Shown piece after piece: positions 3,425 to 61,097 of a DNA stretch of 64,000 nucleotides. The position numbers were made by a program, and so were the translations under genes. A model generated the notes under the pieces. That model had not been told where the DNA came from, did not search any database, and saw nothing but the letters and a program-made list of their open reading frames with translations. Location of the stretch: NCBI RefSeq assembly GCF_045037415.1, contig NZ_CP173438.1, one strand, 5' to 3'. Every line of letters starts with the position of its first letter. Position 1 is the stretch's first letter. The stretch is from Escherichia coli (lineage in GTDB: Bacteria; Pseudomonadota; Gammaproteobacteria; Enterobacterales; Enterobacteriaceae).

Positions 3425-4477
3425 ATGAAAAAGACAGCTATCGCGATTGCAGTGGCACTGGCTGGTTTCGCTACCGTAGCGCAGGCCGCTCCGAAAGATA
3501 ACACCTGGTACACTGGTGCTAAACTGGGCTGGTCCCAGTACCATGACACTGGTTTTATTCCTAACAATGGTCCGACCCACGAAAACCAACTGGGTGCAGG
3601 TGCTTTTGGTGGTTACCAGGTTAACCCGTATGTTGGCTTTGAAATGGGTTACGACTGGTTAGGTCGTATGCCGTACAAAGGCGACAACATCAACGGCGCA
3701 TACAAAGCTCAGGGCGTTCAGCTGACCGCTAAACTGGGTTACCCAATCACTGACGATCTGGACATCTACACTCGTCTGGGTGGTATGGTATGGCGTGCAG
3801 ACACCAAGGCTAACGTACCTGGTGGCGCATCCTTTAAAGACCACGACACCGGCGTTTCTCCGGTCTTCGCTGGCGGTGTTGAGTATGCGATCACTCCCGA
3901 AATCGCTACCCGTCTGGAATACCAGTGGACCAACAACATCGGTGATGCACACACCATCGGCACTCGTCCGGACAACGGCATGCTGAGCCTGGGTGTTTCC
4001 TACCGTTTCGGTCAGGGCGAAGCAGCTCCAGTAGTTGCTCCGGCTCCAGCTCCGGCACCGGAAGTACAGACCAAGCACTTCACTCTGAAGTCTGACGTTC
4101 TGTTCACCTTCAACAAAGCAACCCTGAAACCGGAAGGTCAGGCTGCTCTGGATCAGCTGTACAGCCAGCTGAGCAACCTGGATCCGAAAGACGGTTCCGT
4201 AGTTGTTCTGGGTTACACTGACCGCATCGGTTCTGACGCTTATAACCAGGCTCTGTCCGAGCGTCGTGCTCAGTCCGTTGTTGATTACCTGATCTCTAAA
4301 GGTATCCCGGCAGACAAAATCTCCGCACGTGGTATGGGCGAATCCAACCCGGTTACTGGCAACACCTGTGACAACGTGAAACAGCGTGCTGCACTGATCG
4401 ATTGCCTGGCTCCGGATCGTCGCGTAGAGATCGAAGTTAAAGGCATCAAAGACGTTGTAACTCAGCCGCAGGCTTAA
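3425..4477 (+). CDS. ompA: Outer membrane protein A, 350 aa, variant surface-loop allele
   Basis: Signal peptide [21 protein letters not shown], beta-barrel, APAPAPAP hinge and C-terminal OmpA/peptidoglycan-binding domain; track ORF 3338..4477 includes 29 spurious upstream codons. Confidence 0.95.
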
Positions 4478-55123: not shown

Positions 55124-55886
55124 TTACTTACCAGAGGCGATACGATCACGGATGTGTTGCGCACGCTCTGTTGATGGTGGGTGAGAATCAAACATGGACT
55201 GGGTGTGACCGCCATCCAGGCTAGCGAGTTTTTCAAAGCTACCAACCAGCCCCTGGGTACTGATGCCACGTTTCTTCAACAGATCAAAGGAGAAATCATC
55301 TGCTTCTGACTCTTTATCACGGGAGTATTTAGCATTGATAGCGCCTTCTGCGATATCACCCAATTGTGAGCGGGAAAGCTGGGAAGCCACACCGCTGGTA
55401 GCTGAAATGGCATCGCGTGCGGCCACGATCGCATAAGAAGCTTTCATTTCAGCCAGCGAGTGACCCAACGCGACGTGGCCCAGTTCATGGCCCAGAACGC
55501 CTTCAATTTCGTTGTCGTTCATCATGTCCATCAGGCCACTGTAGACACGAACACAACCGTTCGCCATCGCCCATGCGTTGACGTCGCTGGTCATATAAAC
55601 CTTATAGTTGACTGGCGTGCCATTAATATTGTTACCCAATGCTTTGGCGATTTTTGCCAGACGTTTCCCGTACTTGCTGGATTTGCTTGCCACTTTATTG
55701 CCGCTGTCCATTTCGACACAGCCCTGATTGGCGATTGCTTTAGCATCAGCATCGCTTAATGTTGCGGCTTTATAAGCATTCAGACCTGAGCTGATAGCCA
55801 AATCGGTATTAATACCGTGCGTATTCTGACATCCTGTCAGTAAGGCTGCAGAGGTCGCAATCGCCAGCAATAATTTAGTATTCTTC
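55124..55886 (-). pseudogene. ycaL: Zn-metalloprotease lipoprotein YcaL: coding body intact but native ATG start and RBS displaced at the prophage junction
   Basis: In-frame codons for KNTKLLLAIATSAALLTGC (lipobox) and HELGH zinc motif are present, but the codon where Met1 is expected reads CAG, an in-frame TAA lies 16 codons upstream, and the first usable start is a TTG at codon 7 with no SD. Confidence 0.55.
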
Positions 55887-55961
<75 letters not shown>

Positions 55962-55962
55962 T

Positions 55963-56040
<78 letters not shown>

Positions 56041-56049
56041 TTGCAGATA

Positions 56050-56439
56050 TTACTCTTTTTTCTCCGTATCTGCATCGGGTTCATCAGCAAATAGCTTGCC
56101 CTGCATCCGATCCAGTTCTTCTTTTCTTACCCGCTTAACCACGCTGTAGACCCACTGAAGCGAAACACCAAATTTGCGGGCCAGTTCGTGGTGGTTGCGT
56201 CCGTTAAACTCCCTGAAGATTTCCCGGTCGCGCTGACTGACCTTCCATACCATGCCCATCGGGAAATAAACGTTTTGCCCGCCCCAGACCTGCATCATTC
56301 GGTTCGCGACGGCCTGACCAATCTGGTCGGCAACTTCGGGCTCAATATCAATAATCTCGCGAACGGTCTCAGAGGTATGCTGTGCCAGTTCCACCAGGAG
56401 TTCCGGCCCCTTACTTCGAAACTGATTCAGGTCGCTCAT
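56050..56439 (-). CDS. mor: Mor/C-family transcriptional activator (Mu middle-operon regulator homologue), 129 aa
   Basis: Same length as Mu Mor; motifs GGQNVYFP and REFNGRNHHELARKFGVSLQWVYSVVKRVR parallel the Mor HTH region as recalled. Confidence 0.75.
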   Translation of the reverse strand: MSDLNQFRSKGPELLVELAQHTSETVREIIDIEPEVADQIGQAVANRMMQVWGGQNVYFPMGMVWKVSQRDREIFREFNGRNHHELARKFGVSLQWVYSVVKRVRKEELDRMQGKLFADEPDADTEKKE

Positions 56440-58194: not shown

Positions 58195-58491
58195 TTACTC
58201 GTTCGTGTAAATCACGCCCAGTCGTGCAGCCAGACGTTCCAGTTTTTTCTGTTTGTGGAAGTCAATCAGCCGGTCCATCCCCTGAAGGCGCAGTTGCTCT
58301 GTCATGATTTCCACGTCTGCCAGCTCTGCCGCGAGGTCACTTTCGCTGCCCTGTCCGTTCAGGTTGCGGGCGGCACTGGCCGCCAGTTCAGCGGCCTCTT
58401 CTGCCAGTTTCAGGGCCTGTGCGTCCGGCCCGAAACGCTGCAGGGCCAGACGGTAGAGGGCGGTGCGGGTGAGTTCGGTGTTTCGTGTCAT
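58195..58491 (-). CDS. MazG-like nucleotide pyrophosphohydrolase-domain protein, 98 aa
   Basis: EEAAELAA...AAELADVEIM pattern typical of the small all-alpha MazG/HisE fold. Confidence 0.5.
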   Translation of the reverse strand: MTRNTELTRTALYRLALQRFGPDAQALKLAEEAAELAASAARNLNGQGSESDLAAELADVEIMTEQLRLQGMDRLIDFHKQKKLERLAARLGVIYTNE

Positions 58492-58500
58492 GCCGCGCCC

Positions 58501-58773
58501 TCAGTGCTTCCGGCTGACGGTGATGTGCAGGCCGCCTTCTGCAGTGGTTTCCATCCGGTACGGCACCTCATGCTCTGCCGTGTGGGTGAGTGTGTTCATC
58601 AGTACCTGCAGGGCAGCCTCCTTTCCGTTGGTCGCCACAATGGCCTGTGTGGCCATGCTGATTAGCGCCGTCAGGACGTGCTTCACATCGGTGAGGTCGC
58701 GGCATTCACACTCGTTGACATAGTGTTCAACAAGGGTTCGGGTGCGCTGTCGTGCTTCCTGTGGGGTAATCAT
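58501..58773 (-). CDS. Hypothetical phage protein, 90 aa
   Basis: ORF in operon context, coupled to the downstream gene; no motif recognised. Confidence 0.4.
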   Translation of the reverse strand: MITPQEARQRTRTLVEHYVNECECRDLTDVKHVLTALISMATQAIVATNGKEAALQVLMNTLTHTAEHEVPYRMETTAEGGLHITVSRKH

Positions 58774-58964
58774 TGCGAGTCCTCCCTGTCAGGGCGGGAG
58801 AATTCCATGACGGGCACGTCTGCCGAAAAATGCTGGCTGCAGTACGGGCAGACCAGGGTGACGCGTACCGCAGGGATGTGGTATTTACCGGACATCACGG
58901 CGATGGCGCTGTGAAAACGCAGGGCTGTTATATCCCTCTCGCACTGAATACATTTAAATATCAT
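58770..58964 (-). CDS. Small zinc-ribbon protein, 64 aa
   Basis: CxxC (CIQC) ... CxxC (CPYC) pairs. Confidence 0.45.
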   Translation of the reverse strand: MIFKCIQCERDITALRFHSAIAVMSGKYHIPAVRVTLVCPYCSQHFSADVPVMEFSRPDREDSQ

Positions 58965-59061
58965 GATTTAATTCTCCTCTGTTTCCGGCGTGCAGAAGCC
59001 CGCGGCGCTGACGTCGGAATAAAAAAGAAAATGTTTTTATTAAATAATTAACGTGGTGTGT

Positions 59062-59592
59062 TTACTGCACATCCTGCTCAAAAGGAATTATTGAAAAATC
59101 CTCAATGTCGCTTTTAATGGAAATACCGGGAATATTTTTCACGGCCTCTTTTTCATTCAGGATAGCGTCTTTATTTATTTCCTCTTTTACACGAATAAAG
59201 CGCTCAAGCCCCAGACGTCTCAGTAATTCAATAACATTATCCGCCCCACGGATACTGACTGATGGCGGACGGTTTCGCCACTGCACCTCGCCGGTGGTGA
59301 GGTTAGCGAACTTCACCTTCCCGTTGCCGGTCAGTTCATCACGGTGTGCCTCACACCATGTCTGAATACCGGACTGCAGTTCGGCCATGCGTTTTTTCAG
59401 GCTCTCGGTGAGCGGGGCATAACGTGCGGTGATATCGCCAATGGCGTCATTCATTTCTGTTTCAGCCCTGACCAGTTCACGTTGTGCGTCACCGAGTAGT
59501 CTGATTCCCTCAATGACCTCTTCACGTGTCCCCGGCACCCAGAGTGCTGCTGCGGCCTTGATACGTTTTGCACCTTTTGTACTTTTTGCCAT
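59062..59592 (-). CDS. gam: Gam-like host-nuclease inhibitor / DNA-end binding protein (Mu Gam family), 176 aa
   Basis: MAKSTKGAKRIKAAAALWVP...TEMNDAIGDIT...WCEAHRDELT...VSIRGADNVIELLRRLGLERFIRVKEEINKDAIL...FSIIPFEQD closely parallels Mu Gam as recalled. Confidence 0.85.
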   Translation of the reverse strand: MAKSTKGAKRIKAAAALWVPGTREEVIEGIRLLGDAQRELVRAETEMNDAIGDITARYAPLTESLKKRMAELQSGIQTWCEAHRDELTGNGKVKFANLTTGEVQWRNRPPSVSIRGADNVIELLRRLGLERFIRVKEEINKDAILNEKEAVKNIPGISIKSDIEDFSIIPFEQDVQ

Positions 59593-59619: not shown

Positions 59620-59889
59620 TTACCACAAAGATTCCGGCCACACGACGCGACAGCCGTGCAGTTCGAAAACGCCCTGACGGAAATATCCCCTGTGGTCATG
59701 TCCGGTATACAGATAACAGGCCTTTCCCTGCTCAAGCATGCGCATGCAATGCGCACTCCGGGAAACGCGGATGACAGGTTTGTTACCCCTGATGGTGATG
59801 CTTTGTACATCCGTGTTCGTCGCCTTAAGCGCCATAATGGCTGACTGCACTTTGCTGATTTGCTGGTTGATACCTGTGGTGGATTTCAT
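59620..59889 (-). CDS. Hypothetical phage protein, 89 aa
   Basis: ORF between the MuB-like gene and gam, where Mu carries kil; no motif recognised. Confidence 0.4.
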   Translation of the reverse strand: MKSTTGINQQISKVQSAIMALKATNTDVQSITIRGNKPVIRVSRSAHCMRMLEQGKACYLYTGHDHRGYFRQGVFELHGCRVVWPESLW

Positions 59890-59891
59890 TA

Positions 59892-61097
59892 TTAAACCCC
59901 TTTGACAACGTCAGCGTTGACCTGTGGAACCCCGATTTCAGCGGCCAGATTCATGGCGGCTATTACCAGGTTACTGACGGCCAGCGGATACAGCAGGCTG
60001 ACCATATTTTTACGGTGACTTCCCGGATTGCTCAGGCGGGCACGTATGGCATCCACTGCACCGGCGTCCATAATGTCCGTCAGCTGTTTACCGGCCCGTT
60101 GCAGTTTGAACGTCAGAAATTCTTCAAGGTTATTGTCCAGAGGCAGAAGTTCGACCACCTCACAGCGCTGAACGACTTCACGGACTTCCATATTGCGTTC
60201 AGACAGTTTTGTCGCCAGTTCCGGCTGGCCAATCAGCACGATGGACAGCAGTTTTTTGAAACCGGACTCCAGCTCAAAAAAGCGTTTGAGGTGTTTCAGT
60301 GTCGGAATGGGCAGACTGTGGGCCTCCTCAATCACCAGAACGTGGCTGAACCCCGCCTGGCTGCTGTCTTTCAGGACGCGATGCAACTGGCGAAAACGGG
60401 CGTCCTGACTGCGTCTGATGCTTTCCAGTGGTGCGATGGTACTGATAATGGCTTCGGCAATAGCTGCTGCCTTCAGGGTTTTCCCTTTCACATCGTTGTC
60501 TTCCATAGCGATGATGTATGGCTCGATAACAATTACCGGCGCATTCTCGCGGTTGATACGTTCAGTCAGGTCGCGGCGCAGCGTGGATTTACCCGCACCG
60601 GACTCACCGATGACGGCCATAAACCCACCATGACGGGCTGTCTGGTACAGCGCCTCACGCACGTAGCGAATGTCCGGGGTGGTGAACACATCATCAGAAC
60701 CCTGCATGGCTTCGTCGGCGAACGGGTCACGGAAAAGACCAAACGCTTTTTTGGTTGCTGGAAATAACACCTGTTTTTTGAGTAACATATTCTCTTCCTC
60801 ACTGAGGCTCGTTTTATCTGTGGTACCCGCTGTACGGGGCGTGGCCGCGCCCTGTACAGCATCAAAACTCTTCGTTGTATCAATCCCCTGACTTTCCAGC
60901 CAGGACGCAAGACGCCGGCGCACTTCTCCGGGGCTGGTGCGGGGCCACGCGTTATGATTCACAATCTGGGCCAGCGTGGCCTCAGAAACATCGACAGCTC
61001 TCGCCACCACCGCCTGTGGAATACGGGCCTCTTTCAGTTGCTGCTTCAGTACCAGCATGTTTCCCTCCTCAGTTGCCGTTAACAATGCTGATAACAC
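59892..61097 (-). CDS. MuB-like transposition ATPase (N-terminal HTH plus AAA+), up to 401 aa
   Basis: Walker A GESGAGKST, N-terminal Xre-like HTH (AVVARAVDVSEATLAQIV); immediately downstream of the transposase; start uncertain (the Met at 61058 would remove the overlap with the transposase gene). Confidence 0.8.
   Translation of the reverse strand: MLSALLTATEEGNMLVLKQQLKEARIPQAVVARAVDVSEATLAQIVNHNAWPRTSPGEVRRRLASWLESQGIDTTKSFDAVQGAATPRTAGTTDKTSLSEEENMLLKKQVLFPATKKAFGLFRDPFADEAMQGSDDVFTTPDIRYVREALYQTARHGGFMAVIGESGAGKSTLRRDLTERINRENAPVIVIEPYIIAMEDNDVKGKTLKAAAIAEAIISTIAPLESIRRSQDARFRQLHRVLKDSSQAGFSHVLVIEEAHSLPIPTLKHLKRFFELESGFKKLLSIVLIGQPELATKLSERNMEVREVVQRCEVVELLPLDNNLEEFLTFKLQRAGKQLTDIMDAGAVDAIRARLSNPGSHRKNMVSLLYPLAVSNLVIAAMNLAAEIGVPQVNADVVKGV

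Follow-up and report, generated by a model that had tools for sequence, protein, structure and literature searches.

A Prophage Early Gene of Escherichia coli Assigned to the HI_1482 Family, a Very Probable Remote Homologue of Phage Mu Kil

Introduction

What is encoded by the small open reading frame (ORF) that lies between a MuB-like transposition gene and gam in a Mu-like prophage of Escherichia coli? The question arises from a stretch of 64,000 nucleotides (nt) of contig NZ_CP173438.1, referred to here as the window, in which an ORF of 89 amino acids (aa), which we call ORF89, runs on the minus strand at positions 59620–59889, from an ATG start codon up to and including the stop codon. The product, given in the ORF listing of the window as MKSTTGINQQISKVQSAIMALKATNTDVQSITIRGNKPVIRVSRSAHCMRMLEQGKACYLYTGHDHRGYFRQGVFELHGCRVVWPESLW, has a mass of about 10.1 kDa and an isoelectric point (pI) of 9.85. 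The kil gene of phage Mu has been known since the 1980s. A sequence-only reading of the window had left ORF89 unassigned, had noted that it occupies the place where Mu encodes kil, and had drawn attention to its Cys and His residues. In transposable phages other than Mu, the semi-essential part of the early region commonly goes without annotation (PMC4553209). Here, we assign ORF89 by its profile match to the HI_1482/PHROG 2041 family, and we present evidence that this family is very probably a remote homologue of the Mu Kil family, although it falls short of membership at curated thresholds. A host-directed, toxic role of the kind known from Mu is proposed on this basis and weighed against other explanations.

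Results and Discussion

ORF89 belongs by profile match to the HI_1482 family

ORF89 matches phrog_2041, a family of unknown function, over essentially its full length (residues 3–89, E 3.1e-36), which places it in the HI_1482/PHROG 2041 family. The RefSeq protein identical to it, WP_000843446.1, carries the name "HI_1482 family protein" in the most recent RefSeq genomes and had been entered as "hypothetical protein" in earlier ones, so that the description "unassigned" no longer applies. ORF89 had no match in the local NCBIfam release 20.0, and the model behind the HI_1482 name is therefore presumably newer than that release, or is not a hidden Markov model (HMM). A Pfam scan of ORF89 was also without a match, in a copy of Pfam that lacks PF26843 and in which Mu Kil likewise went unmatched, and the PADLOC defence-system models matched neither ORF89 nor Mu Kil.

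While a word-index protein search recovered close relatives only (at least 61% identity), an exhaustive search with a profile through 1.8 billion representatives returned 84 family clusters at E 1e-3 or better. From these searches, with frameshifted and truncated alleles excluded, an alignment of 68 full-length members was used for the family (A3). Relatives occur in prophages of Salmonella, Klebsiella, Enterobacter, Citrobacter, and Pasteurellaceae, and members of 98 aa are known from Haemophilus influenzae, Pasteurella, Avibacterium, and Rodentibacter. With the close-subfamily profile, a Pasteurellaceae representative (P0151) was reached at E 5.6e-4, and the family profile recovered P0164, which represents a Haemophilus cluster, at 3e-19; these HI_1482-type proteins are about 26% identical to ORF89 and measure 98 aa against its 89. 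In an H. influenzae Mu-like prophage (locus L098), the order of genes is repressor, ner, A, B, and then a 98-aa family member at 4001–4297 of the locus, which agrees with the name HI_1482. HI_1482 itself, from the FluMu prophage of H. influenzae, falls in the same family as ORF89 by profile search and has the same position after B. The database names that we saw for family members are "hypothetical", "prophage protein", or "sulfate transport protein CysZ". The last of these, which UniRef gives to some Haemophilus members (P0164/P0209), is a clear mis-annotation of a post-MuB prophage protein.

Profile comparisons connect the family to Mu Kil

Taken one at a time, the sequences give only a faint signal. 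ORF89 matches the Kil models phrog_6381 and phrog_2743, families that either include Mu Kil or are similar to it, weakly (E 0.019 and 0.11), and the reverse match, of full-length Mu Kil to phrog_2041, is weak too (E 0.2). A BLASTP alignment of the C-terminal parts pairs FELHGCRVVW of ORF89 with ARLNGCQIIW of Mu Kil, which brings out a common G-C-x-[VI]-[VI]-W signature, G79-C-R-V-V-W84 in the former and G68-C-Q-I-I-W73 in the latter. The signature lies in the most conserved segment of ORF89, L77-H-G-C-R-V-V-W-P-E86, the codons of which occupy 59626–59655 on the minus strand.

The comparison of alignments yields a stronger signal. When A3 was compared by hhalign with an alignment restricted to close Mu Kil homologues (A4), 67 columns were aligned with a probability of 67.6% (E 5e-5). 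A broadened Kil set (A5) was assembled from members tied to Mu Kil by tblastn and a Mu-Kil-only HMM, namely, Mu, Klebsiella phage Kp4866-3 (53% identity), Vibrio phages 1.028.O, martha 12B12, ZX4290, Shewanella MuM16-2, and Stenotrophomonas phiSHP3; in most cases, the added gene is separated from B by no more than a few small genes on its downstream side. Against A5, the probability rises to 96.3% (E 2e-9), with 79 columns aligned from end to end. When A5 was reversed (one version) or its columns were shuffled (30 versions), the probability was 0.7% or lower (E at least 0.08), and reversed A4 reached 1.0% (E 0.053). Searches in both directions are consistent with this result. The A3 HMM, run on 1567 six-frame segments from the window and the collected loci, detects 7/7 Kil-type proteins at 13–26 bits, ranked right after the true members; Mu Kil scores 16.7 bits (E 6e-4), and the best unrelated segment 8.9 bits. 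Conversely, an HMM of the Kil-type proteins matches 87 of 91 family segments and gives ORF89 of the window 15.1 bits (E 0.005), with one unrelated match (E 0.91) among 7440 background segments. Two of the more distant members of the ORF89 family, P0129 and P0141, moreover carry a precomputed match to Pfam PF26843, Kil_protein.

The two proteins are also alike in setting and character. Mu Kil (gp5, 74 aa; PF26843; PHROGs 2743, 6381, and 2679) and ORF89 are each encoded by the first small gene after B in an early operon, and both are basic (pI 10.16 and 9.85), soluble, and non-hydrophobic. The positions that they have in common are L-x(3)-G-x(2)-V, R-P-x-[IL], and the G-C-x-[VI]-[VI]-W signature. 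They differ in that ORF89 is 15 residues longer, with an expanded helix-2/strand-3 segment (G-x-A-x-Y-Y ... G-x-Y-R-x-G-Q-F) and an x-E-x-x-[HW] tail, and in the gene that follows, which is gam in the window and E5-E8 in Mu.

Predicted structures agree

AlphaFold models of the two proteins are predicted to have the same alpha-beta-beta-alpha-beta-beta-beta domain. The ORF89 model (predicted local distance difference test, pLDDT, 83.7; predicted template modelling score, pTM, 0.71) has helices at residues 4–23 and 45–53 and strands at 28–34, 37–42, 58–64, 70–77, and 80–85; the Mu Kil model (pLDDT 94.3, pTM 0.80) has helices at 2–17 and 41–45 and strands at 21–26, 33–37, 48–54, 57–66, and 69–73. 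The best BFVD neighbour is the same for both models, A0A8S5L8A9, with E 5e-7 and a template modelling (TM) score of 0.62 for ORF89 and E 5e-3 and TM 0.69 for Mu Kil.

Structural matches to the nucleotidyltransferase fold suggested to us another reading, in which ORF89 would be a catalytically dead mimic of that fold, RsfS/Iojap-like or binding a nucleotide or alarmone, that stops host translation or signalling and not morphogenesis. We regard this as very unlikely. The matches have a sequence identity of 5–12%, the family contains neither a conserved acidic pair or triad nor hG[GS] or RelA/SpoT synthetase motifs, and its only well-conserved acidic residue, E86, is missing from Mu Kil. A profile search of PDB sequences with the ORF89 family gave nothing below E 0.8. 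ORF89 differs from the small alarmone synthetases, RsfS/Iojap, and the MenT/Tas1 toxins in lacking catalytic residues, at the same 5–12% identity, and it is much smaller than any active member of the fold, so that the resemblance may be generic. Membership among nucleotidyltransferase-fold enzymes, including those of the RelA/SpoT type, was rejected, as the conserved catalytic carboxylates and the G[SG]/synthetase motifs are absent.

The conserved partner of the gene is B

In the window, ORF89 is preceded in the same operon by a gene for a MuB-like transposition ATPase of the ExeA/AAA_22 type (59892–61097, minus strand), whose product matches Pfam AAA_22 at 3.8e-20 and phrog_296, "DNA transposition protein", at 5.5e-93. 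It is followed by gam (59062–59592, minus strand), which encodes a Mu Gam-like host-nuclease inhibitor (PF07352 9.9e-41, phrog_491 5.5e-73) and is separated from ORF89 by a 27 nt spacer with a GGAGA ribosome-binding site. The placement of ORF89 between a MuB-like gene and gam, as described in the sequence-only reading, is thus borne out. The TAA stop codon of the MuB-like gene, at 59894–59892, and the ATG of ORF89, at 59889, are 2 nt apart, and we read in the sequence a Shine-Dalgarno-like AAAGGGG at 59897–59903 (minus strand), 7 nt upstream of the ATG and within the last MuB-like codons. This is the layout expected of a translationally coupled gene, and translation of ORF89 is probably coupled to that of the MuB-like gene.

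To place this arrangement in context, we examined 80 IMG/VR contigs with a family member (36–70% identity), mostly elements of 32–40 kb. The search for related loci used a sub-alignment of 14 sequences, the 68-sequence alignment being too diverse. A MuB-like gene stands directly upstream of the family member in 73/80 contigs, and in 52 of the sample the distance from the B stop to the start of the family gene is between -4 and +2 nt; in the Mu record, kil starts 18 nt after B. Three more distant family members are likewise linked to B, and no source was seen with two Kil-type genes, that is, there is one per element. The downstream gene encodes DUF3164 in 67/80 contigs and gam in 4/80. As the upstream MuB-like gene is nearly constant and the downstream gene varies, the conserved partner is B and not gam. 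The pairing also spans differing B proteins, including Mu B with its Phage-MuB_C domain, the ExeA/AAA_22 type found here, and a 247-aa type at locus L010. ORF89 is the positional counterpart of Mu kil, and the remark that it sits in the kil slot directly after B can now be extended with profile, structural, and synteny evidence to remote homology with Mu Kil itself. In Klebsiella phage KP12, a 203-aa gene that matches DUF3164 references replaces gam; the gam/DUF3164 exchange suggests a swap of modules immediately behind the B-kil pair.

The tight and conserved adjacency to B, set against a changing downstream neighbour, would also fit an accessory transposition factor that cooperates with the MuB-like ATPase or acts upon it, perhaps in choosing targets or in transposition immunity, and that does not kill the host; the homology to Mu Kil would then reflect a shared B-linked role. 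The persistence of the pairing across very different B proteins favours such a factor, as does the synonym of kil in the Mu record, "cim", for control of immunity, and the title of a 1985 article connects a kil mutation with how transposition immunity is established (Mogutov et al. 1985, listed among the references of PMC2837660). On the other hand, tight packing is usual throughout these early operons and is therefore weak evidence of functional pairing. Mu transposition and target immunity have, furthermore, been reconstituted in vitro with MuA, MuB, and the host proteins HU/IHF, and Kil is not needed. Mu kil expressed alone alters cell shape and kills, by the account of Waggoner et al. (1989) in a passage of PMC3961180, which argues for a host target independent of B. 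We therefore consider an accessory role of this kind unlikely. A broader version would make A-B-Kil a conserved three-gene cassette, with the Kil/HI_1482 superfamily as a B-coupled partner, one copy per genome in widely differing MuB lineages, whose dead nucleotidyltransferase/RsfS-like fold would link transposition, through target immunity or membrane association of B, to host growth arrest; to this we give a smaller chance still.

ORF89 is a genuine coding gene

ORF89 is a genuine protein-coding early gene. It is 100% identical to an annotated coding sequence (CDS) of Escherichia phage PhiKM, which is classified in Bcepmuvirus, and the 1 kb around it occurs in 636 of 5426 complete E. coli genomes (about 12%); every listed record among them has an annotated CDS here. 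The sequence-only reading had let its case depend on conservation as a coding sequence in related elements, and ORF89 is so conserved in the relatives that were checked. The alleles carried by Klebsiella phage KP12 and phage Phi06_2974 are 69% identical to ORF89. In comparison with them, synonymous differences amount to 47/59 and non-synonymous ones to 40/208, and the differences are distributed over the three codon positions as 20/17/50; by this substitution pattern, ORF89 is under purifying selection. Several overlapping ORFs of 55–119 aa are present on both strands at ORF89, which could mean that ORF89 is spurious, or that the true gene lies in an overlapping frame. Given that substitutions cluster at third codon positions and synonymous sites and that there are 84 homologous clusters, this is almost certainly not the case. 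When four divergent relatives were tested, the frame of ORF89 was the only one of the six to remain open, and the overlapping and antisense ORFs were rejected because stops close them in relatives.

Many frameshifted or truncated alleles of ORF89 are present in databases (for example, P0002, P0004, P0014, P0079–P0085, and P0097, with partial forms of 58–68 aa). They are outnumbered by intact 89-aa alleles, and the broken ones may be sequencing errors or may reflect inactivation of a toxic gene. In E. coli S10EC, an IS1B insertion is located at the 3' end of gam or immediately past it (equivalent to about 59000–59070), and the Kil-like gene is intact. A terminator-like hairpin in the 3' end of ORF89 (59656–59635) is at chance level, with 3 such hairpins in the region against 2.8 expected.

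Conserved residues do not support a zinc site

Conservation among the 68 members is concentrated near the C terminus. W84 is invariant (68/68), E86 and C80 are kept in 58 and 57 members, respectively, and G79 in 48; elsewhere, L21, P38, and A57 are nearly invariant, and G25, G55, Y59, G73, F75, and R81 are common, as are C80 and E86. The HCMRM (aa 47–51) and HGC (aa 78–80) stretches singled out by the sequence-only reading are indeed present, but they do not hold up as a motif. ORF89 contains three Cys and five His residues, of which only C48 (51/68) and C80 are conserved; H47, C58, H64, H66, and H78 are poorly conserved, and the Mu Kil branch keeps the equivalent of C80 and has no C48.

These residues might nonetheless point to a small early-region regulator that binds zinc through Cys/His, the more so as about a quarter of the members have a CxxC at positions 45–48 and 31/68 end in His. 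Members with the CxxC, however, often lack C80, ORF89 has no Pfam zinc-finger match, and two CxxC pairs sit instead in a neighbouring 64-aa ORF (58770–58964). With only C48 and C80 conserved, and the C80 equivalent alone in the Mu Kil branch, a structural zinc site is unlikely, and we hold a zinc-binding regulator to be highly improbable. Assignment to the zinc-finger or zinc-ribbon proteins, which calls for three to four conserved Cys/His ligands, was rejected with these two.

A proposed host-directed role

Mu Kil kills E. coli without phage replication. Expression of Mu kil leads to spherical E. coli (Waggoner et al. 1989, as related in a passage of PMC3961180), which the same passage reads as inhibition of cell elongation, and it sets this apart from the kil genes of lambda and Rac, which cause FtsZ-directed filamentation; there, the lambda, Rac, and Mu kil genes are described as not similar to one another. 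Early functions of Mu also inhibit bacterial segregation, judging from the title of Boeckh et al. (1986), cited in PMC12409350. Literature searches on HI1482, on FluMu with kil, and on a recent mechanism for Mu Kil returned nothing beyond papers of 1985–1989 cited in other articles.

Based on the homology to Mu Kil and the published Mu kil phenotype, we propose that upon prophage induction the ORF89 product would be produced, along with the transposase and B, from the early transcript. It would be a basic, soluble, cytoplasmic protein of 10 kDa, free of catalytic or metal-binding motifs, that may bind a host component and disturb morphogenesis of the cell envelope or division, and it would be expected to be toxic if expressed alone and dispensable for plaque formation. 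By analogy with Mu Kil, we judge a host morphogenesis or division target, with toxicity of the protein on its own, to be reasonably probable, at a level of confidence clearly below that for the homology. Lambda Kil and Rac KilR, which have the name "kil" in common with the Mu gene, resemble ORF89 in being small early prophage proteins, with host toxicity and non-essentiality in the case of ORF89 being proposed. They show no sequence relationship to it, and neither family matched ORF89 in the PHROG or Pfam scans; the lambda and Rac proteins, moreover, cause filamentation via FtsZ, whereas Mu Kil gives spherical cells.

Several observations count against ORF89 as a Kil-like, host-killing protein. 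Its identity to Mu Kil is only about 13–18% in the profile alignment, it is not significant against the curated Kil models phrog_6381 and phrog_2743, and its own cluster has no recorded Pfam Kil_protein match. The HI_1482 branch has a longer helix-2/strand-3 segment, the semi-conserved Cys48, and a C-terminal x-E-x-x-H extension, all of which are lacking in Mu Kil. The structural agreement is one between predicted models with a shared third-party neighbour and does not come from a direct superposition. Only three isolated phages carry the HI_1482 branch, and tblastn with divergent family members found no further ones. Function, too, may drift at such an evolutionary distance. Finally, intact alleles prevail in resident prophages (clusters of 310 and 312 sequences), and there is thus no visible counter-selection of a toxic gene.

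The prophage and neighbouring early genes

The element that carries ORF89 is a BcepMu-like (PhiKM-type) transposable prophage. Its early end occupies the window from about 55.9 kb on, beside the E. coli genes rpsA, cmk, and ycaL, and all of its early genes are on the minus strand. The prophage end appears to lie between ycaL (55124–55870) and a Mor-like gene (56050–56439), at about 55870–56050, such that the early operon points to the prophage end, an orientation also found in BcepMu-type genomes. The longest ORF of the MuB-like gene begins at a GTG at 61097 and overlaps the transposase gene, and relatives are annotated with 388 aa from about 61058. The MuB-like protein has an N-terminal stretch resembling a helix-turn-helix and differs from Mu B (312 aa, Phage-MuB_C domain).

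Two further small genes of the early region deserve mention. The 64-aa ORF at 58770–58964 (minus strand) has its CxxC pairs at C5-x2-C8 and C39-x2-C42, is zinc ribbon-like, belongs to PHROG 3401 of unknown function (1.6e-40), and is annotated by RefSeq; in the PhiKM record, an opposite-strand ORF is annotated where it stands. At 58195–58491 (minus strand) lies a gene for a 98-aa MazG-like nucleoside triphosphate pyrophosphohydrolase (phrog_2245 5.5e-34), which was named in RefSeq only recently.

Conclusions

Mu Kil and the HI_1482/PHROG 2041 family were each already known, and the link between them is absent from the annotations that we have seen. The link is an advance at the level of annotation, which reveals no new kind of system and will be unsurprising to a specialist. 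If the three-gene cassette described above were real, Kil/HI_1482 would be more than a dispensable, "semi-essential" killer. With the link, the Kil family, previously a handful of near-identical sequences, comes to hold about 90 diverse clusters, and the enlarged family exposes the residues that are truly conserved (W84, G79-C80, P38, L21, and A57) for mutagenesis and for target hunting. The pairing of B and kil is conserved across the transposable phages sampled, and a widespread "hypothetical protein" of these elements gains, through its very probable relationship to Mu Kil, an annotation that can be tested.
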